The notes beneath the pieces were generated by a model. It was not told the origin of the DNA and ran no database searches. It saw only the letters and a list, made by a program, of their open reading frames with translations. Shown in pieces: positions 3,252 to 24,086 of a stretch of 28,025 bases of DNA. The stretch covers positions 1-28,025 of the forward strand of contig JBDHAC010000053.1 of the NCBI GenBank assembly GCA_039588275.1, in the 5' to 3' direction. A program made the translations under genes and the position numbers. This DNA is from Gemmatimonadota bacterium (GTDB taxonomy: Bacteria > Gemmatimonadota > Gemmatimonadetes > Palauibacterales > Palauibacteraceae). How positions within the stretch are numbered: the first letter of the stretch is position 1; each line of letters opens with the position of its first letter.

Positions 3252-3722
3252 ATGGCTCCCTCGATCCGGTTCGTAGCCGCCCTGTCCGTTTGCACCCTCC
3301 TCGCTGTACCGATCCATGCGCAGGAACTCACACCGGAGCAGCAGGAAGTGTGGACCGCTGTGGAGGCGCTGGTCGACCACTTCACCAGCGGAGAGCTAGA
3401 AGCAGCCTACGAGTACCTACACCCGGAGTTGGTGTGGTGGAACACAGGCAACTCGGTTCCCGGTAGCCGCGACGAGGCTTGGGAACTGGATAACGCCTTT
3501 GCCATGTACGCGGGCAAGTGGCTTGCTCATACCCTCACTCCTCTGGCGGTCGTTGTCTCAGGCGATGCAGCAGCCGTATACGCCTATCAGAGAGGCTTCC
3601 GAGAGGACACACCGGGAGGCAACGCAAGTTGGGCAACGATGCGTCTAGTTTTCGTTATGAAGAAGGAAGACGGTAGGTGGCTTCAACTCGCCAACTACCT
3701 GCATTTCGAGGAGAACCTGTAG
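3252..3722 (+). CDS. Secreted NTF2/SnoaL-like (DUF4440-type) protein
   Basis: AGGAGG RBS; signal peptide ending IHA|Q; pattern GELEAAYEYLHPE...VVVSGDAAAVY...VMKKEDGRW. Confidence 0.8.
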   Translation: MAPSIRFVAALSVCTLLAVPIHAQELTPEQQEVWTAVEALVDHFTSGELEAAYEYLHPELVWWNTGNSVPGSRDEAWELDNAFAMYAGKWLAHTLTPLAVVVSGDAAAVYAYQRGFREDTPGGNASWATMRLVFVMKKEDGRWLQLANYLHFEENL

Positions 3723-5538: not shown

Positions 5539-7287
5539 GTGGCATCGATAGATACACGGGGCGACCCGGAGCTCGACCGCCCCGTTTGGAGATCCGAGGA
5601 ACGCCCACGACGCGGGGTATCTCCGCTCGCGTGTGGGCTGCTGCTGGCTTGCACACTTCTCACCGCGTGTGGGGGCGTGGACGAGCCGGTTCGCGGCGTG
5701 TCGGCCGAGGCGACGACCTCTCCTTTCTCCTCAGCCGAGGAGGGTCTGCATTTCCGTGACGTTACCGGGCAGGCCGGCATCGATTTCCTGCACTCCCTCG
5801 GGGATGACGACCTCAGCAACATCGTCGAGAGCTCTGGGGGAGGGGCCGCCTTCCTGGATTTCGATGCGGATAGCCACCTTGACCTCTACATCACCAACGG
5901 CGCCTTCATCGATGGCTTCAGCAGTGGGCGGCGTCCCCGAGCCCCGTACCGGAACGGTCTATACCGGAATCGGGGAGACGGAACGTTCGAGGATGTCACT
6001 CGGCGCGCGCGGGTGGGGGACACCGGGTACGGGATGGGTGTCGTCGTCGGCGACTACGACAACGACGGGTACCCGGACATCTACGTCAGCAACTACGGCC
6101 GTAACGTCCTGTATCACAACGAGGGCGACGGGACGTTCTCAGATGTGACCGAAAGAGCGGGCGTCGGGGGCGACGGCTGCAGCGTCGGCGCCGCGTGGCT
6201 GGATTACGACAACGACGGCCGGCTGGATCTGTACGTCGGCAACTACATCGAATTCGATGTGGATTACGACCTGTACTACCCGCCGGACGGCTACCCCGGC
6301 CCTCTCGCCTACCCGGGACAGCCCGATCTCCTTTATCGGAACCTCGGCGACGGCGAGTTCGAGGACGTGACCGAGCGTATGGGGGTTTACCGCCCCGACG
6401 GCCGGGCGATGGGTGTGGGTGCCGCAGACTACGACGCTGATGGCCGGGTCGACATCTTCGTCGCGAACGACGTGATGCCGAACTACCTGTTCCACAACGT
6501 CGAGGGCCGGCGGTTCGAGGAGGTAGCCCTCGCCTCCGGCGTCGCGTTCGGCCGGCGTGGTGAGGCTACATCGAGCATGGCGGTCGATTTCGCCGATTTC
6601 GACGGCGATGGCCTGCTGGACCTGTACGTCTCTGACATGGCGTACAGCACGCTGTTCCTCAACGAGGGGACCGCGTTCCGCGACGTCACCTACCAGGCAG
6701 GCGTGGCATCTCCCGCCGGTCAGTTCGTCGGCTGGTCCACGAGCTTCTTCGACTACGACAACGATGGCGACGTTGATCTCTACCAGGTGAATGGCGAGAT
6801 CCACCATCTCTACGGCCAGGAAGACCAGCTGTTCGAGAACATGGGCGGGGGCGAATTCCGCGACGTGTCTGTGGAGCGGGGGCGCTACTTCCAGCAGGAG
6901 CTCGTGGGCCGCGGCGGCGCCTTCGGCGACTACGACAACGACGGCGACGTAGACGTCTTCATCGTCAACCTGAACGGTCGCCCGGCGCTCCTCCGCAACG
7001 AAGGCGGCAACCTCAAGAGCTGGCTTCAGCTCGAGCTCGTCGGGGGACCCAGCAACCGGGACGCGATCGGTGCCAGGGTGACCCTCACGGCCGGTGAGCG
7101 CACGCAGGTGGCGCAGAGGAAGAGCTCGACCGGCTACCTGTCGCAGAACGACCACCGCCTGCACTTCGGCCTCGGAGACGCCGAGAGAGTCGAGCGGATC
7201 GAGATCGTGTGGCCCTCCGGGACGCGGCAGCTCCTGGAGAACGTGCCGTCCCGTCAGGCGCTGCGCGTGGTGGAGCCGGGGCCGTGA
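5539..7287 (+). CDS. CRTAC1-family FG-GAP/VCBS repeat lipoprotein with C-terminal ASPIC/UnbV domain
   Basis: Multiple D-Y/F-D-N/G-D-G-x-x-D repeats; C-terminal NRDAIGARV...GYLSQNDHRLHFGLG...IVWPSG; lipobox LLTAC. Start uncertain (ORF open from 5446). Confidence 0.9.
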   Translation: MASIDTRGDPELDRPVWRSEERPRRGVSPLACGLLLACTLLTACGGVDEPVRGVSAEATTSPFSSAEEGLHFRDVTGQAGIDFLHSLGDDDLSNIVESSGGGAAFLDFDADSHLDLYITNGAFIDGFSSGRRPRAPYRNGLYRNRGDGTFEDVTRRARVGDTGYGMGVVVGDYDNDGYPDIYVSNYGRNVLYHNEGDGTFSDVTERAGVGGDGCSVGAAWLDYDNDGRLDLYVGNYIEFDVDYDLYYPPDGYPGPLAYPGQPDLLYRNLGDGEFEDVTERMGVYRPDGRAMGVGAADYDADGRVDIFVANDVMPNYLFHNVEGRRFEEVALASGVAFGRRGEATSSMAVDFADFDGDGLLDLYVSDMAYSTLFLNEGTAFRDVTYQAGVASPAGQFVGWSTSFFDYDNDGDVDLYQVNGEIHHLYGQEDQLFENMGGGEFRDVSVERGRYFQQELVGRGGAFGDYDNDGDVDVFIVNLNGRPALLRNEGGNLKSWLQLELVGGPSNRDAIGARVTLTAGERTQVAQRKSSTGYLSQNDHRLHFGLGDAERVERIEIVWPSGTRQLLENVPSRQALRVVEPGP

Positions 7288-8753
7288 GAATCGACAGGCT
7301 CCGCGGACGTGGCGTGGTCGCCGGCGCGGTGCTCGCGTCGCTCGGCATCGCCGGCGTGCTGGCTTCGAGGACGGGCGCGAGACCCGCGTCGGGGGTGATC
7401 GTGTTCACGCAGGTGCCGGCCGGCGTGGCGGCGCCCGGCGGACCCGACCTCTCGCAGCGGTATCCCACCGGGAGCCGCATCGTCTCGTACGACCCTCTCG
7501 AACCAGAGGTGGGCGTTCGGGTGCTGACGGAGGACTTCCACTCGGCCCGCGCACCCGCCGTCTCTCCCGACGGCTCGCGGATGGCCTTCTCCGGTCAGAA
7601 GCAGGGAGGCGGTCCGTGGCAGATCTGGGAGTTGGAGCTCGAGCGCGGCCGGTCGAGGCTCCTCACGCCGACGGAGGGAGCCACCGACCCCGCGTATCTG
7701 GCCGACGGGGGCATCGTGTTCAGCGCGCCCGCCGCCCATGGTACGGCGGAGCCGCGCCACGCGCTGTTCACGGCAGCTCCGGACGCCGCCGATCCGAGAC
7801 CCATCACGTTTCATCCGGCCGAGGACTCCTCCCCGACCGTCCTCCTCGACGGGCGCCTCTTGTTCGTGACGCGAGGGTTTGCCGCCTCCACGGAATCCCG
7901 GCGCATGACCATGCGCGCCGATGGCACCGCGGCGGAGCTGTTCTACGAGAACCGAGACGGCGGCCGGCAGACGGGGCGGGCCCGGGAGACGCCCGATGAT
8001 CGGGTCGTGTTCGTCGAGTCGAGCGCCCGGGAGAACGCCGACCCGGTGGCCCCCGGTGGACGTCTCATCGCCGTCTCCGGACGCCGGCCGCTGCACTCAC
8101 GGATTGATCTCGGCTCGGGTATCGAGGGAGAGTTCCACTCGGTCGTCCCACTCTCTTCGGACGAGCTCCTGGTGTCGTACCGTCCGCCTGACCGAGCGCG
8201 TTACGGTCTGTACGCATTCGAGCCGCTCACGGGCCGGCTTGATCCGCTCCTTGACCCCGATCCGGGCTACGACGCCACAGAGCCGATCGTGGCGATCGCG
8301 CGGCCGGCGCCGAAGCGGTTCGAGAGCGTGGTCGACCTCCAAAGAGACACGGGCGAGCTCTACTGTCTGGACGCCGATCACTCCGATTTGCCAGCCGATC
8401 GGCAACCCGGATCGAGTGCCTCGATCGCATCGGTGCGGATCCTCTCGGCGACGGGCATCCTGGGCGAGGTGCCGCTCGAAGCGGATGGCTCCTTCTACAT
8501 CGAGCTCCCAGCTGATTCGCCCGTGCGGCTGGAGACTCTCGACGGGGCCGGCCGCGTCGTGCGGGGGCCTTCCAGCTGGATCTGGGTGCGACCGAACGAG
8601 CGCCGCGGCTGCATCGGGTGCCACGAGGACCGAGAGCTAGCGCCCGAGAACCGGGCCCCGCTCGCCGTCGAGAAGCCGCCCGTAACCCTCCCGTCGGTGG
8701 CCTCTGAGGCTCCGAGCGATGGCACGCACGGACCCGACGAGGTGGGGCGATGA
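7284..8753 (+). CDS. Hydrazine synthase alpha-subunit-related protein (TolB-like propeller, HZS-alpha middle domain, one CxxCH)
   Basis: PAVSPDGSRMAFSG...WQIWEL; ILGEVPLEADGSFYIELPADSPVRLETLD...WIWVRPNERRGCIGCHE; N-terminal hydrophobic anchor; GTGA overlap with the upstream stop. Confidence 0.8.
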   Translation: MRIDRLRGRGVVAGAVLASLGIAGVLASRTGARPASGVIVFTQVPAGVAAPGGPDLSQRYPTGSRIVSYDPLEPEVGVRVLTEDFHSARAPAVSPDGSRMAFSGQKQGGGPWQIWELELERGRSRLLTPTEGATDPAYLADGGIVFSAPAAHGTAEPRHALFTAAPDAADPRPITFHPAEDSSPTVLLDGRLLFVTRGFAASTESRRMTMRADGTAAELFYENRDGGRQTGRARETPDDRVVFVESSARENADPVAPGGRLIAVSGRRPLHSRIDLGSGIEGEFHSVVPLSSDELLVSYRPPDRARYGLYAFEPLTGRLDPLLDPDPGYDATEPIVAIARPAPKRFESVVDLQRDTGELYCLDADHSDLPADRQPGSSASIASVRILSATGILGEVPLEADGSFYIELPADSPVRLETLDGAGRVVRGPSSWIWVRPNERRGCIGCHEDRELAPENRAPLAVEKPPVTLPSVASEAPSDGTHGPDEVGR

Positions 8754-10759
8754 GCGTGGAGGGGCACCGGCGCAGGCGCTGGCCACTGCTGGCCGGGGCA
8801 GCCTTCCTCGCCGGCCTGATGGTCGCCATCCCCGGCTACCGCCACTCGGTGGAACACGTCAGACACATCTCCGGGAGCGAATCGGCGAGCCTGAACTGCG
8901 TACCCTGCCATGTGCTCTCGAAGCAGGACGGTCCGATAGGCCGCCTGTTGAACCGCGAATACCTGTCGCCGCTCGACATCGCCGTGGCCGACGACGGGAG
9001 CCGGCTGTACGTGACCGCCGAGGAAGGTGACGTCCTGCTCGCGGTGGATCTCCGTGAGAAGAGGGTGGCGAGCTCGATTCCCGTGGGGCGCCGGCCGCAC
9101 AGCGTCGTATTGAGCCCGGACGGCAGGGCCGCGTACGTGAGCAACCGCTGGTCGAATTCGGTCTCCATCGTCGATCTGAGGGCGGGTGAGGTGACGGGCG
9201 AGCTCCCGGTCGGCACCGGACCCTCGGGGCTGGCCCTGACGCCGGATGGGTCGGCGCTGTACGTGGCGAACACCGTTTCGAACGATATCTCGCTCCTCGA
9301 TCTGACGAGCGGCCGAGAGCGAAAGCGGCTGCCCGCCGGCAACGCGCCTTATGCCGTGTCGATGGCGCGCGATGGTGAGGCGGTGTACGTGACCAACCGG
9401 CTCTCCAGCCAGCTCGCCTTCCGCGAGCCGCCGGCAGCCGAGCTGACCGTCGTCGATGCCGGCTCGGAACGGGTCGGTGCGCGGCTCACCTTCCAGTCGG
9501 CGCACCTCATCGAGGGGATCGACCTCACGCCGGGTGGCCATTGGGCGGTGGTGACGCTCGTGCGACCGAAGAATCTCATCCCGGCCACGCAGATCGGGAG
9601 GGGCTGGATGCTCACCTTCGGTCTGGGCATCGTCGATCGGGCGCAGGGTGGGAGGGTCATCCAGCTACCCCTGGACGACGTCAACGCGTTCTACGCCGAC
9701 CCCTACGACGTCGTCGTCACGCCGAACGGCGAGCTCGCGTTCGTGAGCCATGCGGGGGCGGATGTCATCAGCGCCGTGGACCTCCAGGCCATCCGCGAGC
9801 TCCTGGACGGACTCCCCGCGGACAGCCTGGCCGTGTACGCCAACCACCTCGGCGTGAGCGATCGCTATGTCATCAAGCGGATCCCGACGGGCGCGAATCC
9901 GAAGGGTCTGGCCCTCGCCCCTGACGGGCGACGGCTGTACGTGGCCGAACGGCTCGACGACCGGATCTCCATAGTCGACGTTGAGCGCCTGGAGATCATC
10001 GACGCCATCGACCTGGGAAGCGGCAGGGAGACCTTCCTTCGCCGAGGCCAGAGACTCTTCCACGACGCGGGTCACTCGTTCCAGGGCCAGTTCAGTTGCC
10101 GCTCCTGTCACCCGGAAGGACACCACGACGCTCTGACGTACGATCTCGAGCCGGACGGAATCGGGCGCAACGTCGTGAACAACGTCTCGCTTCGCGGGCT
10201 GGCCGAGACGGCGCCGTATAAGTGGACGGGCAAGAACGCGAGCCTGTACAGACAGTGCGGCTTCAGATTCGCGAAGTGGCTCACCAGAACGGAGCCGTTC
10301 TCCGAAGATGAGCTCTATGCGCTCGTGGGCTATATCCTCTCGCTCTCGCCCGCCCCCGGCCGGTATCGCATGCCGTCGGGTGAGCTGACCGAAACTCAGC
10401 TACGAGGGCGAGCGGTCTTCGAGCGGACGGTCACGAACGACGGTGATCCGATCCCGCCGGAGAATCGTTGCACGACCTGCCACCCGCCGCCGCTGTTCAC
10501 CAACAAGCAGAAGGTCGATGTAGGCACGAGCGGTCCGACGGACACCGAGACGGAGTTCGACACGCCCGCGCTGAGCAACCTGTACGACCACGGGCCGTAC
10601 CTCCACGACGGGCGGGCGATCACGCTCGAGGAGATCTGGACGAAGTACAGCCCGGATGACACCCACGGCGTCGCGAACGACCTGACCAAGGCCCAGCTGA
10701 ACGATCTGATCGAGTATCTGAAGAGTCTGGGAGGCACCGACGACTCCAGTGAGCGATAG
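8750..10759 (+). CDS. YVTN beta-propeller fused to a di-heme cytochrome c peroxidase/MauG-like domain (HZS beta-gamma-like), three CxxCH
   Basis: CVPCH, CRSCH and CTTCH; repeats LYVTAE, AYVSNR, LYVAN, VYVTN; SLRGLAETAPYKWTG; FDTPALSNLYDHGPYLHDG; DLIEYLKSL; ATGA overlap. Confidence 0.88.
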   Translation: MSVEGHRRRRWPLLAGAAFLAGLMVAIPGYRHSVEHVRHISGSESASLNCVPCHVLSKQDGPIGRLLNREYLSPLDIAVADDGSRLYVTAEEGDVLLAVDLREKRVASSIPVGRRPHSVVLSPDGRAAYVSNRWSNSVSIVDLRAGEVTGELPVGTGPSGLALTPDGSALYVANTVSNDISLLDLTSGRERKRLPAGNAPYAVSMARDGEAVYVTNRLSSQLAFREPPAAELTVVDAGSERVGARLTFQSAHLIEGIDLTPGGHWAVVTLVRPKNLIPATQIGRGWMLTFGLGIVDRAQGGRVIQLPLDDVNAFYADPYDVVVTPNGELAFVSHAGADVISAVDLQAIRELLDGLPADSLAVYANHLGVSDRYVIKRIPTGANPKGLALAPDGRRLYVAERLDDRISIVDVERLEIIDAIDLGSGRETFLRRGQRLFHDAGHSFQGQFSCRSCHPEGHHDALTYDLEPDGIGRNVVNNVSLRGLAETAPYKWTGKNASLYRQCGFRFAKWLTRTEPFSEDELYALVGYILSLSPAPGRYRMPSGELTETQLRGRAVFERTVTNDGDPIPPENRCTTCHPPPLFTNKQKVDVGTSGPTDTETEFDTPALSNLYDHGPYLHDGRAITLEEIWTKYSPDDTHGVANDLTKAQLNDLIEYLKSLGGTDDSSER

Positions 10760-10762
10760 GCG

Positions 10763-12040
10763 ATGCGTTCGATCCGACGACTCGTGAACGGCTCCAGATC
10801 CCGCGCTCTGCTGACCGGATCACTGGCGGGTGCCCTCGGTTGGCTGGCGGTCGGCGGAGCGCAGTCGGCCAGTCCGAACCGCATGCAGCCTGGGCCGGAG
10901 TCTCCGGAGGCGCTGGCGGCGAACGGCGGGTCCCGCCCGCAGATGATTCGGGAGGCGACCGCACAAGCGGCACAGCCAGCGACCGCGCCGTCGCCCGCCC
11001 CCGCGAGCGGCCCCATGCCCGTCGTCAGCGAGTGGCGGACCTTCACCAAGAAAGACGGCCTGCCCTCCGACAAGATCTATGCGGTGAGGGTGGGGGATGG
11101 GCGGGTGTGGGCCGGCACGGATGCCGGGCTCGCGTACTACGAAGACGGCACCTGGACGACGCTGACGACCGCCGATGGTCTGGCTCACGACGTGGTGCTC
11201 TCCATCGATGTGAGCGAGCAGACGGGCGACGTGTGGATCGGCACCGCGGGTGGACTGACCCGCTGGTCCGCGGGCCGCTTCGAGATCTTCGATCAGCTCA
11301 ACAGCGGATTGGCGAACGACGTGGTCTACGGCGTGTCAACCGAACGGGAGCACCTATGGGTGGCCACGGCCGCGGGAGCGGGCCGCCTGAACACATATAC
11401 CGGACGGTGGGACATCTTCAACGAGCAGAACGCTCCGATGCACGAGCCTTGGACATACGGGGTCCACGTGCACGAGGGCGTGGCATACATCGCCGCCTGG
11501 GGGGGCGGGGTGCTCGAGTACGACTCCGAGACCGATCGCTGGCGCGATCACCGTGACCCCGATGGCGAGATGGAGATCGACCTCTTCCCCAATGACGGCG
11601 TGGTTCACGACATAACGACCGCCGTGTCGCACGAGGACGGCGTACTGTGGGTCGCCACCTACTTCGGCCTCAGCCGATACGACGGTGTCCGCTGGCGTGG
11701 CTACTTCGACCACGACAGCGGCCTGATCAGCAACTTCATCAACTTCCTGCGCGCCCGAGGTCCCGTGGTGTGGGTGTGTACGGACGAAGGCCTGAACGCC
11801 TTCGACGGGACCACCTGGGTCACGTATCGCCGGGACGACGATACGGGCAGAGGCGAAGTATCGATCTTCGACGGCACGACCACGGTCAGCCGAACCACCC
11901 CCACCGGCATCGCGCACAACTACGTGCTCGGCGTCGATCTCGAGGACGACCGCGTCTGGGTAGCGACCTCCCAGGGCCTGAGCCTGGGCTCGGCGATGCA
12001 ACAAGCCTCCGACTTTCTGGCACGGAACGACACGAAGTGA
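10763..12040 (+). CDS. Exported beta-propeller protein (two-component-regulator propeller repeats), stand-alone
   Basis: Repeats DGLPSDKI..VWAGTDAGL, DGLAHDVV..VWIGTAGGL, SGLANDVV, SGLISNFI; signal-like N-terminus; no kinase domain. Confidence 0.85.
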   Translation: MRSIRRLVNGSRSRALLTGSLAGALGWLAVGGAQSASPNRMQPGPESPEALAANGGSRPQMIREATAQAAQPATAPSPAPASGPMPVVSEWRTFTKKDGLPSDKIYAVRVGDGRVWAGTDAGLAYYEDGTWTTLTTADGLAHDVVLSIDVSEQTGDVWIGTAGGLTRWSAGRFEIFDQLNSGLANDVVYGVSTEREHLWVATAAGAGRLNTYTGRWDIFNEQNAPMHEPWTYGVHVHEGVAYIAAWGGGVLEYDSETDRWRDHRDPDGEMEIDLFPNDGVVHDITTAVSHEDGVLWVATYFGLSRYDGVRWRGYFDHDSGLISNFINFLRARGPVVWVCTDEGLNAFDGTTWVTYRRDDDTGRGEVSIFDGTTTVSRTTPTGIAHNYVLGVDLEDDRVWVATSQGLSLGSAMQQASDFLARNDTK

Positions 12041-12050
12041 GGATACGAGG

Positions 12051-12653
12051 ATGAGTGATAGCGCTGGTACGCTGACCAAGGCCCCCCGGATCGATGTGAC
12101 GCGGCTGAGTTCGGGCGAGGAACAGGAGCTGCGGAGCTTGGGCATGCTGGGAGAGGAGGGCTCCCTGCGCCCGTATATCCCGCCTGCGGTGCACCGCACC
12201 CGGCCCCCGATCGAGAGGTGCCGCGTCTCCGCCCCCGACATGCTGAACGAGGCGTTCAAGTACAGCCGGCCCTCGTCTTTCTCGCGAGCCTTGGCCATGC
12301 AGTTCGGCGACTACCGGGTCCTGCTCATCTCGGGCACCGCCAGCGTCGACGAGCAGGGATTCTCGGTCCACGAAGGGGACTTCCGAGCTCAGTGCTGGAG
12401 AGCGTACGGCAACATCACCGCGCTCCTGGAGGCCGAAGGCATGACGTGGCACGACATCGTCCGCACGACATGCTACCTGCGTGACATCGAGCGCGACTAC
12501 AAGGACTTCAACGAGGTGCGAACGGCCTTCTTCGAGTGGCTGGGTCTCGATCCGCTTCCGGCCAGCACCGGCATCCAGGCGCGGTTGTGCCGGGAGGACC
12601 TTCTCGTGGAGATGGAGGCTATCGCAGTCGCGCGGCGGGTTGGGGAGGAATGA
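12051..12653 (+). CDS. Rid/YjgF-fold protein resembling the catalytic domain of FkbO/Hyg5/XanB2 chorismatases
   Basis: EAFKY, SSFSRA, LLISGTASVD..G..VH.GD...Q, and LCREDLLVEMEAIA; no signal peptide. Confidence 0.78.
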   Translation: MSDSAGTLTKAPRIDVTRLSSGEEQELRSLGMLGEEGSLRPYIPPAVHRTRPPIERCRVSAPDMLNEAFKYSRPSSFSRALAMQFGDYRVLLISGTASVDEQGFSVHEGDFRAQCWRAYGNITALLEAEGMTWHDIVRTTCYLRDIERDYKDFNEVRTAFFEWLGLDPLPASTGIQARLCREDLLVEMEAIAVARRVGEE

Positions 12654-13972
12654 CCGTGAGGCCGCGCGCGGCTCGATTGGCAACCCTCGGCGCGATCGTG
12701 GCGTGCGCCGGCGCAACGCACGTCCTGTCCGGGCAGGAGGGTCAGGACGAACGGAAGGACTGGACGCGCTACGCCGGCACGCCGCCAAAGCTGGCACCGT
12801 TCCGCGAGTATCAAAGCCCCTACCTGTTCTTCTTCGACGAACGTCTGGAGTACCTGGGACCGGGGCGCGACAAGGTTCCACTCTCCGGGCTGACAGAGGT
12901 CAGACTCGGGTTCATCGGTCCCATCGAGGGATCCCGCCATGCCCGACTCGGCAGACGGATGCTCCAGGGAGCCACGCTGGCCGTGGAACAGGCCAACGCG
13001 GCCGGCGGCTTCAACGGGCTCCCCTTCAACCTGATCGTGCGGAACGATCTCGGGCTGTGGGGCGCTTCGAGCAACGAGATCGTGGCGCTCCACGATGCGG
13101 GCGTGTGGGGCATGCTCGGGTCCATCGACGGGGCGAACACGCACATCCTGCTGCGGCTCGCGCTGAAGCTGGATATGCCGATGGTCGTCACCGGTGACAC
13201 CGATCCCACGTTCACCGAGACCCGGATCCCGTGGGCGATCCGGGTGAACGGGGACGACCGTCAGAGCAGCTACGCCCTGGCGCTGCAGATCCACGACGTG
13301 ATGGGCTATTCCCGGGTGGCCGTGCTTCGGGTGAACAACCGGTACGGCCGCGTGGGGACCGCGGAATTCAAGGACGCGATGACGCGTCTCGGAGCCCCCA
13401 TCGTGCTCGAGATGCGATACGAGCCCGGCGATACGACGTTCGCTGCTCAGCTGGAGCGCATTCGTCGAGCCGACCCGGATGCGATCCTCCTCTGGGGAGA
13501 CGTCGAGGAGGCGGGGCTCGCTGCGAGGCAGATCCGCGAGATGGGCATTCGGCAGCCCGTGTTCGGCTCGGATCGGCTCGTCTCGGAGGACTTTCTCAGG
13601 ATTGCGGGACGGGCAGCTGACGGAGTCGTCGCGACGTACCTGTACGATCCGACGAGCGACGACCCGATCCTGCGGAACTTCAACCGCCGGTACCGGGAGA
13701 GGTTCGGCGAGGAGCCAGAGAGCTTCGCGGCGCACGCGTACGATGGCATGAACATCATGATCGAGGCGGTCCGGCGAGCGGGTCTGAACCGCGTCCGGAT
13801 CCGTGACGAAATGACGGATCTCACCAGCTATAGTGGCGTCACCGGCGAGATCATCTTCGATGAGAGGTGGGACGATGTCGGGCCGATCTGGATGGCTGAA
13901 ATCCGGGACGGAGGGTTTCACTTCTTCCCATCGCCCCTGGAACAGGCGAGGCATGAAAACTCACGGCCGTAA
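12650..13972 (+). CDS. LivJ/LivK-type periplasmic binding protein
   Basis: [48 protein letters not shown]; signal peptide; GGAGG RBS and ATGA overlap. Confidence 0.88.
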
Positions 13973-14852
13973 AGACGAAAGCGCGGCGCCAGGAACGCAG
14001 ACCCTCCGGGAGGCCAGGCTCGTCGCGTACGAGTCGAAGCCCGAGGGGACCACCGTCGTCGCGGGCGGCGTCGAGATCGGCGGCCCCGAGGCCATCGTGA
14101 TGGCCGGCCCGTGCGCGGTCGAGAGCAGGGAGCAGCTGCTGTCGACAGCACGTGCGGTTCAGGAAAGCGGTGCGAAGGTCCTGCGGGGGGGAGCGTTCAA
14201 GCCCCGCACGTCTCCCTACAGCTTCCAGGGTCTCAAGGAGGAGGGCCTCGAGCTGCTCGCCTGGGTCAGGCAGGAGACCGGACTGCCGGTAGTGACCGAG
14301 GTGATGGAAACCCGCAAGGTGGAACGGGTGAGCAACCATGCGGACATCCTCCAGGTAGGCTCCCGGCACATGCACGACTACGCTCTCCTCGAGGAGGTCG
14401 GGCGAGCGCGGATTCCGGTCCTGCTCAAGCGAGGATGGAGCGCCACGCTCAAGGAACTGCTCCTCTCGGCCGAGTACATCCTCAACCAGGGCAACGAGCA
14501 GGTCATACTCTGCGAACGCGGGATCCGTACCTTCGAGCCTTGGACACGCAACACCTTGGACCTCAACGCTATACCCTTCCTGAAGCGCCGTACCCACCTG
14601 CCGGTGATCGTGGATCCTAGCCACGGAACGGGGCTCAGGTGGATGGTCCCGAAGATGAGCAAGGCGGCGCTGGCGGCCGGGGCGGATGGTCTTCTGGTCG
14701 AGGTGCACTGCGATGTCGAAGCGGCCCTGTGTGACGGAGCGCAGTCCCTCACGCTCGAAGACTTCCGGGTGATGATGGACGACCTGCGTCGCCTGTGCGG
14801 TGTCCTCGACCGTCAATTCGTCGCTCCGCAGGTTACCGGAGCCCCGGGGTAA
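13953..14852 (+). CDS. aroF: DAHP (3-deoxy-7-phosphoheptulonate) synthase, type I-beta, catalytic barrel only
   Basis: [59 protein letters not shown]; 299 aa with no ACT or chorismate-mutase extension. Confidence 0.93.
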
Positions 14853-14855
14853 CCC

Positions 14856-15941
14856 ATGAAGCTACGGGCCGTGTGGTCTCTATTGCCCGCCATCGTGGCG
14901 CTCTCTCTCGGGGCGCGACAGCCGGCCCCGGTCCGGATCGGCCTCCTCGTCCCGGACGGAGAGCTCGGGGAGGCGGCGAAGCGAGGCGCCGCGATCGCCG
15001 TGGAAGCAGCCAACCGGGACGGGGGATACGGTGGCCGTCGATTCGAGCTGGCGGTGCGGTCGATCGAGGGTCCGTGGGGCTCCGGCACGGGCAAGATTAC
15101 GGAGCTCGCTTTCGATGAGTCGGTGTGGGCCATCCTCGGTCCACTGCGCGGTCGCAGCGCTCATCTCGCCGAGCAAGTCGCCGCCAAGGCCCATGTCGCG
15201 CTTGTCTCGCCCTGGGCGTTCGACCCCACGCTCACGCAGGCCAACGTGCCCTGGTTCTTCCGCTGCGTGCCCGACGACCGCCAGCAAGCTGCGGCGCTCG
15301 TTCGCGAGATCCTGGGTGTCCGTGGCCTCGATCGCATCGCGGTCCTCGTCGCGGGTTCGTATGACGACCGCATGGCGGCGGCTGCCTTCGCGGCGGAGGT
15401 GGACGCCTTCGCGAAGCACACCGGTCCCTCCCACCTGGTTCGCTGGCAGCTCCCCGATAAGGCCGAAGACCTCGAGTCGCTGCTGGCCCGGCTGGAGGCC
15501 GAGGAGGTCGAGGGCATCGTGCTCTTCGAACCTGATTGGGCGACGAGAACGTTTCTTCGGATGTTGCGAACCCGAGGCATGCAGCAGCCGGTCTTCGCCC
15601 CGCTGTCCAGTGCCGATATCGCGCTCCGGGCCTCGGACCCATCGTACGTTGGGGAGCTCGTCGTGGTTGCCCCCGGCCACTGGGCCGCCGCCCAAGGCCG
15701 GGCGTTCGAGCAGGCCTTTCGGGCAGCCTACGACGTTGCGCCGAGCGCCGTGTCGGCCTACTCCCACGACGGCCTGATGGTGATCGTGGAAGCCATTCGA
15801 CGGGCCGGGCTCGACCGGCGACGAATTCGCGACGCTCTGGCGGACGTCGACTACGTGCCAGGGGTCACCGGGCGAGTTCGATTCGACGAAAAAGGGAATC
15901 GCGTGGCGCAGGTGGAGCTGATCGAGCTAGCGCGCCGGTGA
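14856..15941 (+). CDS. Second LivJ/LivK-type periplasmic binding protein
   Basis: VRIGLLVP, GAAIAVEAANRDGG, PWFFRCVPDDRQQA, AYSHDG, GVTGRVRFDEKGNR; paralogous to 12650-13972. Confidence 0.85.
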   Translation: MKLRAVWSLLPAIVALSLGARQPAPVRIGLLVPDGELGEAAKRGAAIAVEAANRDGGYGGRRFELAVRSIEGPWGSGTGKITELAFDESVWAILGPLRGRSAHLAEQVAAKAHVALVSPWAFDPTLTQANVPWFFRCVPDDRQQAAALVREILGVRGLDRIAVLVAGSYDDRMAAAAFAAEVDAFAKHTGPSHLVRWQLPDKAEDLESLLARLEAEEVEGIVLFEPDWATRTFLRMLRTRGMQQPVFAPLSSADIALRASDPSYVGELVVVAPGHWAAAQGRAFEQAFRAAYDVAPSAVSAYSHDGLMVIVEAIRRAGLDRRRIRDALADVDYVPGVTGRVRFDEKGNRVAQVELIELARR

Positions 15942-16114: not shown

Positions 16115-16633
16115 TCAGTCCCTGCCTCCGAGCAGCTCCTGCGGCTCGCCTCCTGTCGGCCCCATCTCGGCCACGTCCGCACTGGCGTCGAGCAATTCTC
16201 GCTCCTCCGCCATTCTGGCCAGCGCCAGCGAACCGGAGGCCGAGACTGCGCTCAGTAGAGTCGCGGAACCGATCATTGCGGCAGCCCGCAGCCAGAGGAC
16301 CGGCCCAAATCCGGCGTCCAGCTGCCACGCAGCGACCGCAAGCACGCCCAGCAGCAGACCACCCACCGCCCCCCAGGCACCGAATCGGGGAAGCGACAAC
16401 TCATCGAATCTGCGACGGCCCGCTGCGATCCGAAGCACCGTGGAGAAGATCGCACCGCCAAGGAAGCCGAGTGCCACCAGCGGCATGACCCAGTCATCGA
16501 GGGGAAATCCATCGGGAGTCCGGCTATTGCCTCCCATAACCAACCCTATCAGTAGGCCGACGGGCGCCCATCCGGCTGCCCAAGTCAGGCCCATCCCTAC
16601 TGCGGCGCGGATGCGTCTCAGCCCCTTCTTCAT
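16115..16633 (-). CDS. Hypothetical membrane protein, paralog of 19113-19544
   Basis: MKKGLRRIRAAVGMGLTWA...GRRRFDELSLPRFGAWGAVGGLL...GSLALARMAEERELLDA. Confidence 0.8.
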   Translation of the reverse strand: MKKGLRRIRAAVGMGLTWAAGWAPVGLLIGLVMGGNSRTPDGFPLDDWVMPLVALGFLGGAIFSTVLRIAAGRRRFDELSLPRFGAWGAVGGLLLGVLAVAAWQLDAGFGPVLWLRAAAMIGSATLLSAVSASGSLALARMAEERELLDASADVAEMGPTGGEPQELLGGRD

Positions 16634-16755
16634 CGCTATCTCCCTGTACCTCGCACCTTCTACTACGGATGGTGCCGATCGGGTCCGACGATGCCCTCGT
16701 GCCAGGCCGAAGTGGGCCTCTGCTCGTCGCGGGGTGATGCCTGAGGAAACTTGGC

Positions 16756-18261
16756 TCAACCGCACTCTCCCCGACCCGACAAACTCCGGAGGGTCCCGAG
16801 GTCATCATCCACGGCGTCCCGCGCCCGGCTCTCGGACCAGTTGAGGCTCCTCCAATCCCCTGGTCGTTCAGGGCCCCACAGCCGCAGGAGCCGGCTCGCA
16901 AGTACGCACTGTGCTTCATCCGGCAACTCGTTGAGACGGCCGACCAGTAGCGGTGCAGCGTCGCTCCCGAGCGAGCCGAGGTAGTCCGCGTCCACCCCAC
17001 CCAACTCCGCGATTCGGTCGACATTATGACGGGCGACCAGACCGGCAGGATTGACGAGCTGCAGTGCACCCACCAGGACGAACGCCGTGACCAGGCCGCC
17101 AAACGCGAAGCGGTCGCGACGGCCGCTGAACACAGTCGCCCCGAACCAGACCACGACTACCGTCAGCCACACGAGAACCGCGGTGGCCACGACACGCAGC
17201 TCCGTGAGGCCGTAGGCGGCTTGGTAGACCAACATGCGTTGGATCGCAGAGGCCACGATGGCCAGGAGGAGAAGGAGATGGGCGCCCGCGAATCCGAAGA
17301 ACACCGAACGCGCCTTCAGACCGCGGTCATCGAGCAGGGCGTGGGTGACGAGAAGCCAGGGGATGGCGAGCGCCACGGCGGCGACGAGTTGGAAGAAGCC
17401 GGCGCGAGCGTAGGCGGCGTATGTGAGACCCGGCGTAACCTCGACCCAGGCTCCCCCTCCGAACAGGTAGCGGAACTGGACGATCACGAATCCCAGGAAG
17501 AGGAGATCCACCAGGCCCAGGGCGGTGCCCACCTCGGCGATCCCGAGAGACGGGCGGGTCGGCTGGAGGCGATGAATCCCCTCCAGTCTCGTGCCCGACG
17601 AAACGCCGATCAGGTAGCCGCAGGCGAGCCAAGACAGAACGGCGATGACCACGAGGTGCGAGGCGAAGGCCTGCAAGTCGATCCGTACGAAGTCCTCGAC
17701 CATCGTGGCGAACACCTCGTCCGCTGATATGAAGAGCGCCCCGAAGACCATCAGCGGGACGAGCGCGAGGAGCGCGCCGCCGAGGGCGGTTCGCGCCACG
17801 GTGCGTGCCGTCCCTCGTGACGTGTCCGTACCGATCTCACCCCAGTTGTGGCGGTTGATCAGTCGAGCGCTTCCGAACGCCGAGTGCAGTCCCGCACCCG
17901 CCACGGCCTCCACGACGTCCAGGACTCCGGACCGCCTGGTCCAGGCGCGCCCCGCGTTGAGAGCCGGCAGCGCGAACGCTGTGCACGCCGCCAGGAAGGT
18001 TCCGAAACGAAGAAGGCCGGAGCCCCGCCACAGCAGGGCAGCACCACAGAGTAGCCCTACTCCGATCCATGACGACGCCTCTCGACTGAGGGGCAATTCA
18101 CCGCTCCGAGCTACGATCCAGACGGAGGCGGCGAGGCCCACGAACAACAGGAAGAAGTTGAGGCCGGGACCCGCGGACGCCCGGAGAAGCTCGTCTCCCG
18201 CAAACCCCATCCCGATGCCAGCCGCGAGGATGGCGGTCACAGGCAATGCTCGGTCGGTCAT
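16756..18261 (-). CDS. DUF4153/DUF4173-family polytopic membrane protein
   Basis: FGALFISADEVF, QFRYLFGG, TYAAYARAGFFQLV, RMLVYQAAYGLTELR, DADYLGSLGSDA, DWRSLNWS. Confidence 0.85.
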   Translation of the reverse strand: MTDRALPVTAILAAGIGMGFAGDELLRASAGPGLNFFLLFVGLAASVWIVARSGELPLSREASSWIGVGLLCGAALLWRGSGLLRFGTFLAACTAFALPALNAGRAWTRRSGVLDVVEAVAGAGLHSAFGSARLINRHNWGEIGTDTSRGTARTVARTALGGALLALVPLMVFGALFISADEVFATMVEDFVRIDLQAFASHLVVIAVLSWLACGYLIGVSSGTRLEGIHRLQPTRPSLGIAEVGTALGLVDLLFLGFVIVQFRYLFGGGAWVEVTPGLTYAAYARAGFFQLVAAVALAIPWLLVTHALLDDRGLKARSVFFGFAGAHLLLLLAIVASAIQRMLVYQAAYGLTELRVVATAVLVWLTVVVVWFGATVFSGRRDRFAFGGLVTAFVLVGALQLVNPAGLVARHNVDRIAELGGVDADYLGSLGSDAAPLLVGRLNELPDEAQCVLASRLLRLWGPERPGDWRSLNWSESRARDAVDDDLGTLRSLSGRGECG

Positions 18262-19091
18262 GTTGCGGCCCTCCGTTCGCAGAACGACGATTCAGCAGCT
18301 CGGCCGGGTACTCGAGAGAGTCCTCCATATCGCCGATCACGAGTGGCAAAGGCCTGAACGGCGGAAGCGAGATCGGCCTCGCTGAAGTCCGGCCACAGGA
18401 CGTCGGTGAAGAGGAGCTCAGCGTAGGCCGACTCCCAGAGCAGGAAGTCGCTCAATCGCCTTTCCCGGCCCGTGCGGATGAGCAAATCCACGTCGCGCGT
18501 ACCGCGCGGTGCGTGAATGGCCTCATACAGGGATCGCTCGAAGGCCTGGCGGGTCGGGGTTATCCCTCGGGCGAGGCGGCCAGCTGCCACCATCAGCGCA
18601 TGGCGCGCCGAATAGTCGATCGCGACCCGGAGATGGAGAGTGGTTCCTTCGCTCGTTCGCTCCTCGACGTGCGCGATCGTGCGTTCCAGAGAATTCGGAA
18701 TCCGGTCCCGACGCCCGATGACGCTCAGGCGCACACCATTCTCCTCAAGGCGGGCGCATTCCGATTCCAAGTGCTTCTCCAAGAGACGCATCAGGTGATC
18801 CACTTCGTCTAGCGGACGGCGCCAGTTGTCCGAGGAAAAGGCGTAGAGCGTGAGCGTGGTGATCCCCAGCTCCGGGGCGTGCTCCACCGTTCGTCGGACC
18901 GCCCTGGCTCCGGCGACATGGCCGGCCGCTCTGGGTCGCCCTCCTTCCTGCGCCCAGCGGCCGTTTCCATCCATGATGATCGCGACATGGAATTGGTCCC
19001 GGGCTTCACCCACTCGCTCGAAGCTCCCTGGGGAGGCTCGTTCCGGTCGCTCAGGCATCGGCCATCGCGACCTCAAAGTACTTCGTATCAT
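18258..19091 (-). CDS. uppS: Undecaprenyl diphosphate synthase (cis-isoprenyl transferase)
   Basis: HVAIIMDGNGRWA, YAFSSDNWRR, DLLIRTG.E.RLSDFLLWESAYAEL, RRYGG; alternative start at 19058. Confidence 0.93.
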   Translation of the reverse strand: MIRSTLRSRWPMPERPERASPGSFERVGEARDQFHVAIIMDGNGRWAQEGGRPRAAGHVAGARAVRRTVEHAPELGITTLTLYAFSSDNWRRPLDEVDHLMRLLEKHLESECARLEENGVRLSVIGRRDRIPNSLERTIAHVEERTSEGTTLHLRVAIDYSARHALMVAAGRLARGITPTRQAFERSLYEAIHAPRGTRDVDLLIRTGRERRLSDFLLWESAYAELLFTDVLWPDFSEADLASAVQAFATRDRRYGGLSRVPGRAAESSFCERRAAT

Positions 19092-19096
19092 AAAGT
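19080..19096. promoter_or_regulatory. Palindromic operator at the uppS start
   Basis: ACTTCGTATCATAAAGT matches ACTTTGCATCGCAAAGT at 20601; an adjacent half-site CAAAGT lies at 19074-19079. Confidence 0.6.
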
Positions 19097-19112
19097 CACT
19101 CCTGAAAAAAAA

Positions 19113-19544
19113 TCAGGCGTCGAGTAATTCGCGGTCCTCAGCCCTTCTGGCCAGCGCCAGCGAACCGACGGCGGAGCCTGTGCACAACAGTGTCACGATG
19201 CTGCCAACGACCAGGCCCCAGACGGGAAAGCCCGCAACGGTCCCCATCGTCGCGATGAATCCCCCCACGAGAAGGCCGCCCAGCGCCCCCCACGCAGCGA
19301 ACCGGGGCAGCGACATCTCATCAAACCTTCGACGACGGCCGGCGATCCCGAGCACGGCGGAGAACGTCACGCCGCCGAGGAAAGCGGGATACGCGAACAC
19401 CGGTATCCAGATATCCACGACGTCCGTATTGAGACCCAGGCTATCCACGATTATCACCATTAGGATACCGACGACGGTCCATCCGACTGCCCAGGTCAGG
19501 CCCATCCCGACCGCACCGCGGATGCGTCTCAGCCACTTCTTCAT
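19113..19544 (-). CDS. Hypothetical membrane protein, paralog of 16115-16633
   Basis: MKKWLRRIRGAVGMGLTWA...GRRRFDEMSLPRFAAWGALGGLL...GSLALARRAEDRELLDA. Confidence 0.82.
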   Translation of the reverse strand: MKKWLRRIRGAVGMGLTWAVGWTVVGILMVIIVDSLGLNTDVVDIWIPVFAYPAFLGGVTFSAVLGIAGRRRRFDEMSLPRFAAWGALGGLLVGGFIATMGTVAGFPVWGLVVGSIVTLLCTGSAVGSLALARRAEDRELLDA

Positions 19545-19568
19545 TACTGCCCCCCCAAGACCGGTCGC

Positions 19569-19955
19569 CTATTCTCGTACGCGCTCGATCAACGCCTCCA
19601 TGTGGTCCAGATATCGCTGGAGCGCCTGTCGTCCGGCCTCCGTGAGGCGATAGTCCGTCCGCGGAATGCGTCCCTGGAAAGACTTTCGTATCTCGACGTA
19701 GCCGGCTTCCTCCAGCCGCCTGGCATGAACACTGAGGTTCCCGTCCGAAGTGTCGAGACGCTGCTTGAGCTCGTTGAAGGTGAGAGATTCCTCCACCGCG
19801 AGTGCGCTTACGATCCCAAGGCGGACACGCACATGGATGATCGGGTCGAGTGCGACAGGACTGGTCTTCCCGGCTTGTACATCGATGCTCACGGTCGATC
19901 CCTTGACCGGGGCCGGGTTCGGGACCTCGGGGCGGGCCCGCGCACCCTCAGCCAC
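19569..19955 (-). CDS. Winged-helix transcriptional regulator (HTH_34/ArsR-MarR-like)
   Basis: LDPIIHVRVRLGIVSAL...LTFNELKQRLDTSDGNLSVHARRLEEAGYV...PRTDYRLTEAGR; GTG start overlaps the upstream stop. Confidence 0.9.
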   Translation of the reverse strand: MAEGARARPEVPNPAPVKGSTVSIDVQAGKTSPVALDPIIHVRVRLGIVSALAVEESLTFNELKQRLDTSDGNLSVHARRLEEAGYVEIRKSFQGRIPRTDYRLTEAGRQALQRYLDHMEALIERVRE

Positions 19956-20559
19956 CGTGCCTCCTCGCGATAATCGTCCCGAAGAGGATTTGCAGCCCCC
20001 CGAATCCCACCGCCATCGAGAGATCACCCGCGGCAGGCATCGCGAGAAGCGCAAACACTCCGAGGATCATGAAACAGATCCCCATCACGGGAACGGTCTT
20101 GACCGAAAAGGTGCCCCCCGTGACGACGGCGACGCCGTAGAGGAGCAGCCATGCCCCCGGAAGAAGTGAGTCAGCTCCGGCCCGCCAGAGCGCTATCGTG
20201 AGTATCGCTCCCGCGACAGCGGGAGGCAGGAAGCTCAGAAGGAACTTGCGACCCGCTCCGGAAAAGACGGGAAGATCTGCCCGACGCGCCTTCCGGTGGA
20301 TTGCCACGGTCCCGATCGCCACCGCGAGCAACGCCTCGAGGGACCAGACTAGAAGCCACCCCTCAGCCGTCGGCTGGCGTGAAGCGATCGCCGCAGCCGC
20401 CAGTGCGGTGAGTCCCATTCCGACGCCACCCCAGCCCGGAACCGCCGTGAAGGCGGCGCCCCCCTCCATCGTCCGACGGATGAAGCGCAAATCCTCCATG
20501 GCTCGGTCGCCCAGGGCGATAGGCTCCGAACTCTGATCGACTTGAGAGAGTCTTTGCAT
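19948..20559 (-). CDS. Conserved hypothetical membrane protein (~6 TM) preceding the regulator
   Basis: RAMEDLRFIRRTME...VPGWGG...WLLLYG...GFGGLQILFGTIIARRHGG. Start taken at MQRLSQ; the longer ORF call crosses the att site. Confidence 0.82.
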   Translation of the reverse strand: MQRLSQVDQSSEPIALGDRAMEDLRFIRRTMEGGAAFTAVPGWGGVGMGLTALAAAAIASRQPTAEGWLLVWSLEALLAVAIGTVAIHRKARRADLPVFSGAGRKFLLSFLPPAVAGAILTIALWRAGADSLLPGAWLLLYGVAVVTGGTFSVKTVPVMGICFMILGVFALLAMPAAGDLSMAVGFGGLQILFGTIIARRHGG

Positions 20560-21108: not shown

Positions 21109-21237
21109 TCAGACTTGCCGCCAGCGGCGGCCGGGTCCGACGGACCCATCTGCCCTGAACCCAGACGAACAACAACGCGCGTAAAGCGCGCTCCCGTTCA
21201 GAATCGGCGTCTCGATCCTGTCGCCGCGACGCGGGAG

Positions 21238-24077: not shown

Positions 24078-24086
24078 GAGGCGACC

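Follow-up and report, generated by a model that had tools for sequence, protein, structure and literature searches.

The subject of this work is an operon at positions 5539-15941 of a 28,025-nucleotide stretch of Gemmatimonadota DNA (the window; contig C53, JBDHAC010000053.1), in which a pair of haem proteins resembling hydrazine synthase (HZS) is encoded together with a putative chorismatase and a 3-deoxy-D-arabinoheptulosonate 7-phosphate (DAHP) synthase (DAHPS). The genome carrying it, from a sediment bacterium, measures 4.1 Mb, with 66.7% GC and 85.8% completeness, and its closest relatives are mostly Gemmatimonadota metagenome-assembled genomes. Eight co-directional open reading frames (ORFs), g1 to g8, were all confirmed:

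5539..7287, + strand: g1, FG-GAP/ASPIC-UnbV (CRTAC1-like) propeller lipoprotein, 582 aa (PF13517 3.8e-55, PF07593 1.5e-24)
7284..8753, + strand: g2, HZS-alpha-like protein, 489 aa, propeller plus one c-type haem (PF18582 2e-18)
8750..10759, + strand: g3, HZS beta-gamma-like fusion, 669 aa (YncE propeller plus CCP_MauG 2.6e-10)
10763..12040, + strand: g4, secreted Reg_prop beta-propeller, 425 aa (PF07494)
12051..12653, + strand: g5, cytoplasmic single-domain Rid protein, 200 aa, putative chorismatase (PF01042)
12650..13972, + strand: g6, LivK-type periplasmic binding protein 1, 440 aa (Peripla_BP_6 PF13458 9.3e-49)
13953..14852, + strand: g7, type I-beta DAHP synthase, 299 aa (DAHP_synth_1 5.2e-75)
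14856..15941, + strand: g8, LivK-type periplasmic binding protein 2, 361 aa (PF13458 2.2e-35)

A sequence-only reading of this DNA had described eight co-directional, tightly packed genes under these labels, and the ORFs together with Pfam, NCBIfam and Protein Data Bank (PDB) matches bore it out; the profile searches that it proposed returned HZS_alpha in g2, CCP_MauG in g3 and UnbV_ASPIC in g1 at the E values listed. With the starts chosen, the successive junctions from g1 to g8 are overlaps of 4 and 4 nt, gaps of 3 and 10 nt, overlaps of 4 and 20 nt, and a gap of 3 nt, and GC at third codon positions is 0.79-0.86 across all eight frames. The start of g1 is uncertain, its frame being open from 5446; its hydrophobic stretch ends in a lipobox-like LTAC, and its homologs are mostly ORFs of 560-630 aa. 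The products of g1, g2, g3, g4, g6 and g8 each begin with a hydrophobic stretch (mean hydropathy 1.65-2.45) and look exported; g5 has no such N-terminal stretch (0.04), and the best hydrophobic stretch of g7 (1.29) is its own catalytic AGPC strand, with none outside it. No sigma-70 promoter was found for the operon, and the single terminator-like match on the + strand inside it lies within shuffle expectation; no RNA holder was listed for the operon, which has no bearing on its expression. Because gene order is conserved over seven phylum-level labels, as detailed below, the operon is not a product of chance. A protein Atlas search matched the proteins to their own families only. The genome holds a single HZS_alpha gene, chorismate synthase and two cytochrome c assembly genes, and futalosine MqnA/D was not found in it.

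The haem core was compared with HZS and with the MauG family. The best solved-structure match of g2 is HZS alpha (5c2v_A, 5.5e-24); g3 matches HZS beta (5c2v_B, 6.6e-45) and gamma (5c2v_C, 6.2e-24), with an S-layer propeller ranking higher (1.2e-49). There is one CxxCH motif in g2 (C443-x-x-C446-H447) and there are three in g3, which runs from an N-terminal anchor through an extra haem site (H36, C50, C53, H54) and a seven-blade propeller to a CcP/MauG-like dihaem domain (C450-H454; C574-H578 with H639). All four NCBIfam HZS models reach only 13-32% of their cut-offs (alpha 104 of 800, NF052339; beta 181 of 560; gamma 100 of 625; fusion 238.5 of 1250, NF052342). A Tyr591 ligand on the alpha-I haem is a feature of anammox HZS (PMC12758564, PMC12607021). 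In g2 there is no alpha-II haem domain and no equivalent of Tyr591, no Tyr occurring in the 14 residues after the CxxCH His, nor was a Tyr found at His+4 in 70 distant alpha proteins.

In an alignment of g3 to 5C2V, W492 falls at gamma His144 and F507 at or beside Asp168, the proposed proton donor of HZS (PMC12607021), the register at 506/507 being set by sequence alignment only. Among 87 aligned g3 sequences, W492, R506, R513 and H639 are present in every one (87/87), Q502 in 83/87 and F507 in 75/87, while position 503 is Cys in 45/87 and Asp in 42/87; in this member C503 aligns with gamma Cys165, the third haem link of HZS, and H639 makes the gamma-II haem bis-His as in HZS. The distal triad of MauG is Gln103/Pro107/Glu113 (PMC6405878), and the corresponding positions in g3, by spacing from W492, are Gln/Arg/Thr (Q502, Arg506, Thr512). 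With F507 at or beside Asp168 and with this triad, neither the HZS acid nor the peroxidase acid is kept in g3. Relatives carry four or more haems at the beta-gamma N-terminus, in c554-like domains, and the single N-terminal haem of g3 beside its anchor helix would most simply be a short form of this multi-haem electron wire. Seemingly fused alpha and beta-gamma genes in L006 and L037 were discounted, being put down to frameshifts or shadow frames. A PF13447 scan of the 85.8% complete genome gave no match, as was the case for the control genomes, and no HAO/HDH-named match was obtained among 15 of the 17 multihaem ORFs of the genome.

Altogether, g2 and g3 match a published, functionally unassigned family of HZS homologs and, by these sequence marks, are not hydrazine synthase; the haem core, the FG-GAP gene and the two binding proteins are already in print as clade III (PMC12758564). 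The HZS models below cut-off and the key residues that are not kept agree with the idea, put forward from the sequence, of a non-anammox HZS paralog system. For its further suggestion of N-N or N-O chemistry on a hydroxybenzoate, no positive evidence was obtained, the residues of HZS chemistry and the distal Glu of peroxidases not being kept. Two other haem-rich regions were noted. At G000:C9:975-20540 (L271) there is a run of ten ORFs for multihaem cytochromes, each with 4 to 21 CxxCH motifs; the C-terminus is cytochrome b-like in one of them, several have no NCBIfam name, and the run looks like an extracellular electron transfer cluster. At G000:C18:84487-92881, two FG-GAP genes, one of them also encoding TPR, adjoin the gene of a TPR protein with five haems, and the FG-GAP gene with TPR matches (41%) the gene that follows the operon in Bacteroidota.

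We then consider g5. Its TIGR00004 score is 56.9 against a cut-off of 106.25, and Ser172 stands at the position of the PAR-motif Arg of RidA, which we take to be Arg105 and which is catalytic in RidA imine deaminases. Residues of g5 were mapped to Hyg5 (5AG3) and FkbO (4BPS) by motif, through the three-domain relative P0136. The domain-2 motif is found in g5 as Y150, R157 and G174 (Hyg5 Y147, R154, G173) and the domain-3 motif as Y71, F77, R79, G95, C180 and E187 (Hyg5 Y207, F218, R220, G240, C327, E334), E187 taking the place of the catalytic Glu334; eight of these nine positions are invariant in 35/35 orthologs, and G174 is nearly so. The substrate-binding residues of FkbO, Tyr155, Arg162, Tyr215, Phe226 and Arg228, have their equivalents in Y150, R157, Y71, F77 and R79. 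Three-domain relatives split the domain-2 and domain-3 motifs over separate domains. Since both halves of the site lie in one g5 chain and on separate domains in the long relatives, a homotrimer would rebuild an active site at each interface; g5 looks like a one-domain chorismatase, and a homotrimeric state is predicted for it. Gly/Gly/Cys is the signature of the 3-hydroxybenzoate-forming Hyg5 subfamily (PMC7170507, PMC4685789), and the Gly and Cys are retained in each of the 31 other chorismatase-like neighbours that were checked. Searches of the PDB with short g5 fragments gave chance or RidA-type matches only. Apparent fusions of Rid with DAHPS or with a binding protein, or of the propeller with Rid (P0124, P0221, P0213, P0222, P0125), look like frameshift read-throughs or frame joins and were not used.

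The second chorismate-pathway gene, g7, scores 368 bits with TIGR01361 (cut-off 267.75) and keeps the motifs KPR(S/T), AGPC, CERG and DPSH. It is a second DAHPS copy in this genome, the housekeeping gene on contig C68 having an N-terminal extension of ~100 residues; AGPC lies ~50 residues from the start of g7 versus ~100 in the C68 copy, and the N-terminal regulatory domain is missing from g7. As for the remaining members, the nearest solved structures to g6 are HAAT-family binding proteins (best 3.4e-30); g6 has a conserved N-terminal extension and is fused to the g4 propeller in five relatives (L014, L018, L053, L054, L059). The second binding protein, g8, is 33% identical to g6, and the two are fused in L058. 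No PF02653 match that would indicate a cognate LivH/LivM permease was found in the 85.8% complete genome, the control being positive in 12/14 genomes.

Conservation of the gene set was surveyed in 88 loci anchored on g3, 11 from one search and the best 80 of 366 from another, with three shared. They come from Bacteroidota, Verrucomicrobiota, Acidobacteriota, Gemmatimonadota, Planctomycetota and two smaller labels. Where there is room, the alpha gene is present upstream in 77/79 loci and the propeller follows beta-gamma in 84/84. Among the 61 loci with at least 5.5 kb downstream, a binding protein is present in 61, the short Rid gene in 37, the long Rid form in 3 and DAHPS in 37; Rid or DAHPS occurs in 50/61 and both in 27/61. 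Rid and DAHPS are kept also when the order changes to upstream, divergent or downstream placements (L034, L037, L054, L058, L067, L083, L085, L087, L088, L104, L122, L155). Conversely, of the best 80 of 568 Rid-anchored loci, a set that overlaps with the g3-anchored one, 76 have a core gene. No tailoring or export genes are conserved around the cluster.

For the 37 loci without the short Rid, three have the long form in its place, seven end too early and were left out, and the genomes of the remaining 27 were searched: six hold the short form elsewhere, ten a long form found with the g5 profile, ten a long form found with P0361, and one none, so that a chorismatase-like gene exists elsewhere in 26/27. 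A Bacteroidales group that seemed to keep DAHPS without any chorismatase was overturned by these later genome searches. In three Opitutaceae the long chorismatase adjoins a DAHPS that g7 BLAST did not hit, probably of type I-alpha, and one long-form chorismatase of Gemmatimonadota adjoins chorismate synthase. Altogether, the link between chorismatase and the HZS-like cluster is near-obligate, and the synteny survey for which the sequence-only reading had called finds Rid and DAHPS conserved with the cluster, also when rearranged or replaced by other forms of the same enzymes. Of the outcomes that this reading had named as refuting it, neither a missing HZS-alpha domain match nor a loss of the Rid and DAHPS synteny was observed.

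Other genes recur around these clusters. A Tll0287-like gene follows the second binding protein at L036:12818-13504 and in six other Verrucomicrobiota loci. Asparagine-synthase-like and RaSEA-like radical SAM genes accompany flanking FG-GAP genes in many Bacteroidota and some Verrucomicrobiota (e.g. L063:4471-6742, L033, L066, L073, L078, L170), in 47 and 15 of the fetched, partly redundant loci; they were not found in the present genome and hence were not counted as core.

The association extends beyond the g3 clade, and the family is very large. Among 8,000 scored candidates, HZS-like matches numbered 1,724 and 6,685 for two clades, the second beta-gamma clade being ~30% identical to g3. In the best 80 of 596 loci of this distant clade, a chorismatase lies within 8 kb in 22 and directly downstream of beta-gamma in 21; alpha is present in 50, DAHPS and a binding protein in 1 each, and the propeller in 0. 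Since these three genes are kept there, mostly without propeller, binding protein or DAHPS, the shared core consists of alpha, beta-gamma and chorismatase. One beta-gamma often stands with two or three alpha paralogs bearing FGE, NPCBM, F5/8 or laminin-G domains, and behind the chorismatase there are, among others, radical SAM pairs accompanied by NirDL-type and HemA genes, which we read as haem synthesis genes, as well as ResB/CcsA, sugar kinases, isomerases and hydrolases. Among 52 scanned distant-clade neighbours (of 100 called) no prenyltransferase, coenzyme A (CoA) ligase, hydroxylase or ring-cleavage enzyme was found. The operon of one Bacteroidia genome (G204; L268:4680-19997) encodes IclR, beta-gamma, chorismatase, DhaK, DhaL, an LsrF-type thiolase, alpha, a class II aldolase and ResB-CcsA, and is a candidate for an uncharacterised sugar catabolic pathway; L256 and L258 hold a similar Dak set.

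Background rates were determined in several genome sets. Among 151 genomes of the host class, two contain g3 relatives, and the short Rid is confined to these two as well. The chorismatase and HZS_alpha markers, PF21168 and PF18582, are likewise both restricted to one pair of genomes among 201 Bacteroidia, one of them the search centre, and are neighbours in each; in 14 control genomes, PF18582 and PF21168 were found only in Bacteroides thetaiotaomicron. Of 201 Planctomycetota, 11 have an anammox-grade HZS beta (9 over the cut-off and 2 cut by contig ends), and 0/11 have a chorismatase-like gene, giving RidA-level matches only, while such a gene is present in 8/9 Planctomycetota with an HZS-like beta. 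Of the other 181, 14 have a chorismatase-like gene, and 9 of these 14 hold HZS_alpha, 6 within ~7 kb. In three Gemmatimonadota (L162, L164, L165) a long chorismatase-like gene was also seen remote from any HZS-like genes, flanked by those for a Vps10/BNR protein and an M28 peptidase.

From this gene content, these motifs and this co-occurrence, we infer enzyme activities, a complex, an electron path and a cofactor role as follows. The products of g2 and g3 would form a periplasmic, membrane-tethered four-haem oxidoreductase supplied with a home-made aromatic cofactor. The unregulated g7 enzyme would keep the shikimate pathway running despite plentiful aromatic amino acids, and the predicted g5 homotrimer would split chorismate into pyruvate and a hydroxybenzoate, with 3-hydroxybenzoate the likeliest to judge from the active-site residues. 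The haem complex may bind this hydroxybenzoate, or a product that g3 makes of it, to serve as a ligand or a redox-active group, and electrons may travel between complex and membrane through the bis-His gamma-II haem and the haem at the N-terminus. The true substrate would be another small molecule, probably captured by the g4/g6/g8 module, and the complex would not make hydrazine. We give a probability of roughly 45% to the hydroxybenzoate being a cofactor of the oxidoreductase. A role for it as cofactor is favoured over one as substrate because the distant-clade neighbourhoods fit a catabolic oxidoreductase with cofactor-supply genes better than a pathway to an aromatic product. The sequence-only reading had left open whether a substrate, a cofactor or a product derives from chorismate; the link to chorismate genes stands, and its main idea, a hydroxybenzoate that serves as substrate, is less favoured by these neighbourhoods than a cofactor.

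Several observations weigh against this cofactor proposal. With respect to g5, its TIGR04444 score is 40.7 bits against a cut-off of 325, RidA proteins rank above FkbO and Hyg5 in direct searches, and the products of chorismatases are not accurately readable from alignments (PMC3949708); three-domain chorismatase-like proteins fused to an AMP-binding domain also exist (P0179, P0190, P0191). With respect to co-occurrence, the counts come from related genomes and are not independent samples, several genomes hold more than one HZS-like cluster, so that a chorismatase elsewhere may serve another copy, and one of the 27 genomes searched (G017) has no chorismatase-like gene, as is true of one HZS-like planctomycete (G471); the long form occurs in two other host-class genomes without HZS_alpha, and 5/181 other Planctomycetota have a chorismatase-like gene without HZS_alpha. 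Finally, high-flux product pathways, too, typically have a dedicated DAHPS such as that present in 37/61 loci, a benzoate substrate could be bound by basic and aromatic residues close to gamma-I, the operon encodes no acid exporter, and the sugar-gene context comes from the distant clade only and not from around the g3 clade.

The best-surviving alternative, which we regard as unlikely but deserving of weight, is that the hydroxybenzoate is the substrate, which the haem complex would hydroxylate, couple or N-modify; the secreted product, for instance a metal chelator or a redox shuttle, would be held by the binding proteins. The dedicated, regulator-free DAHPS of 37/61 loci would suit such a pathway, LivK-type proteins that bind aromatic acids exist, and the invariant R506 and R513, together with K491 and mostly Phe507, in the gamma-I distal segment suit an aromatic carboxylate. 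It is disfavoured by the distant clade, where DAHPS adjoins only 1/80 loci and where several alpha paralogs, bearing carbohydrate-binding or FGE domains, share a single beta-gamma and a single chorismatase, by the lack of conserved tailoring or export genes, and by the hosts of HZS-like clusters, many of which we take to be anaerobes.

It is improbable that g5 is not a chorismatase in vivo, hydrolysing instead another enol ether or reactive intermediate from the haem complex, with the DAHPS link otherwise caused. Although g5 scores below the family cut-off and its nearest solved sequences are of RidA type, the PAR-motif Arg of RidA is replaced by Ser172, the nine chorismatase positions are kept, and the chorismatase has as partners two unrelated DAHPS types and, in one case, chorismate synthase. 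Marginally more doubtful is a role of g3 as a MauG-type maturase that oxidises g1, g2 or g4 by hole hopping to form a protein-derived cofactor, the aromatic acid being secondary: W492 (87/87) and Q502 (83/87) do stand at the spacing of MauG Trp93 and Gln103, but Arg506 and Thr512 occupy the places of Pro107 and Glu113, the ligand of the second haem is His639, as in HZS, in place of the Tyr needed for bis-Fe(IV), and the distant clade retains the chorismatase although Met replaces the Trp there.

On a par with the maturase role, we rate the hydroxybenzoate as a diffusible signal, sensed by the propeller and binding proteins and merely co-regulated with the haem complex. 3-Hydroxybenzoate is the diffusible factor of Xanthomonas, g4 belongs to a sensor-propeller family and no LivH/M permease was found in the genome; however, the distant clade keeps the chorismatase with the propeller in 0/80 and a binding protein in 1/80 loci, and the conserved core contains no kinase or regulator. 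That the operon encodes a true hydrazine synthase in an anammox host, as proposed for such genes (PMC10732223; bioRxiv 10.1101/2024.06.05.597523), is the most improbable of all, for in spite of the same folds, four haems in total, C503 at gamma Cys165 and a bis-His gamma-II haem, all four NCBIfam HZS models score far below cut-off, the equivalents of Tyr591, His144 and Asp168 are not kept, 15 of 17 multihaem ORFs give no HAO/HDH-named match, the family occurs in Maribacter and Lutimonas isolates, and the chorismatase that marks HZS-like homologs is found in 0/11 anammox genomes.

Returning to the cofactor role, its extension to the whole non-anammox HZS-like family, as periplasmic haem oxidoreductases that would need a chorismate-derived hydroxybenzoate as a hitherto undescribed cofactor and whose simplest chorismatase would be a single-domain homotrimer, is tentative and a little less probable than the claim for this operon. 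The further idea that anammox HZS arose by dropping the chorismatase, with alpha Tyr591 perhaps taking the role of the phenolate, is speculative and has little probability.

Further genes of the window lie on either side of the operon. Downstream, a convergent unit on the minus strand (16115-20054) encodes a membrane protein, a DUF4153 protein, a winged-helix regulator and a cis-prenyltransferase; in L041 part of such a prenyltransferase gene precedes beta-gamma in the same frame, probably by chance. Ordinary heavy-metal RND efflux genes of the CusCBA/CzcCBA type occupy 21115-27212. On the other side, an asparaginase N-terminal domain without a C-terminal domain match lies at the contig start (12-953) and a SnoaL-like protein is encoded at 3252-3722.

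In the literature, PMC12758564 rejects the anammox reading of HZS homologs and assigns them no function, whereas PMC10732223, whose OFTM5 genome is among our loci, reads such genes as anammox potential, and bioRxiv 10.1101/2024.06.05.597523 describes anammox potential in ten phyla including Gemmatimonadota. The main texts of these three papers do not mention chorismate, DAHP or RidA; the part of the PMC12758564 supplement examined has 0 matches for three chorismate-link terms, and Figure 4c of that paper and the rest of its supplement may show these genes, as may the bioRxiv supplementary tables. Literature searches, whose coverage mostly excludes subscription papers, gave among the matches listed no paper linking HZS homologs to chorismatase or describing a single-domain chorismatase. 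New here are the two-half residue mapping, the genome-level near-obligacy with its controls, and the absence of the chorismatase from sampled anammox genomes.

This is a real, widely conserved system with a new handle on its function, and it would be categorically new if the cofactor role holds. The data suggest, at the level of sequence, that the HZS-like relatives may depend on an aromatic cofactor of their own making and take no part in anammox. The near-obligate chorismatase partner offers a handle on what the ancestors of hydrazine synthase do; if the cofactor role holds for the whole family, the chorismatase gene would be a genomic marker that separates false from true anammox predictions in nitrogen-cycle annotation, and a one-domain chorismatase would link Rid proteins to the FkbO/Hyg5 enzymes. 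Access is given by cultured strains, namely Maribacter arenosus, M. polysiphoniae and Lutimonas saemankumensis and, for the wider family, Bacteroides thetaiotaomicron.

Among known systems, the closest is HZS homolog clade III as described by Hagglund et al. 2025 (PMC12758564), which shares with the operon the FG-GAP gene upstream, alpha before a fused beta-gamma, two downstream binding proteins, the missing alpha-II haem, one extra beta-gamma haem motif and Trp for gamma His144; the match was made by features and gene order, with Maribacter arenosus common to its supplementary tree and our loci. Kuenenia stuttgartiensis HZS (PDB 5C2V, 5C2W) shares the alpha, beta and gamma folds, the bis-His gamma-II haem, a haem count of four and, in this member, the Cys that makes a third haem link. 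Unlike it, the operon has no Tyr591 and no alpha-II domain, Trp in place of His144, Phe at or beside Asp168 and an extra N-terminal haem, and its g2 and g3 are accompanied by chorismatase-like and DAHPS genes. With the dihaem family of bCcP, MauG and BthA, g3 has in common the dihaem fold, the bridging Trp and the distal Gln, whereas its distal Pro and Glu are replaced by Arg and Thr, the Tyr-ligated second haem of MauG and BthA is not kept, being His/His (His639), and a propeller is fused to the domain. Within the type I-beta DAHPS family, whose motifs it keeps, g7 stands out by having no regulatory domain and by GSR or GTR at the position where the C68 housekeeping copy has GAR. Finally, all compared active-site positions of the Hyg5-type chorismatase (EC 4.1.3.45; 5AG3, 5A3K), FkbO (4BPS) and XanB2 are shared with g5, in which the Hyg5-type Gly/Gly/Cys signature is present as G174, G95 and C180; unlike the three-domain Hyg5-type chain of ~340 aa, g5 is one Rid domain of 200 aa carrying both halves of the site, and unlike Hyg5, FkbO and XanB2 it lies outside a polyketide, peptide or pigment cluster.

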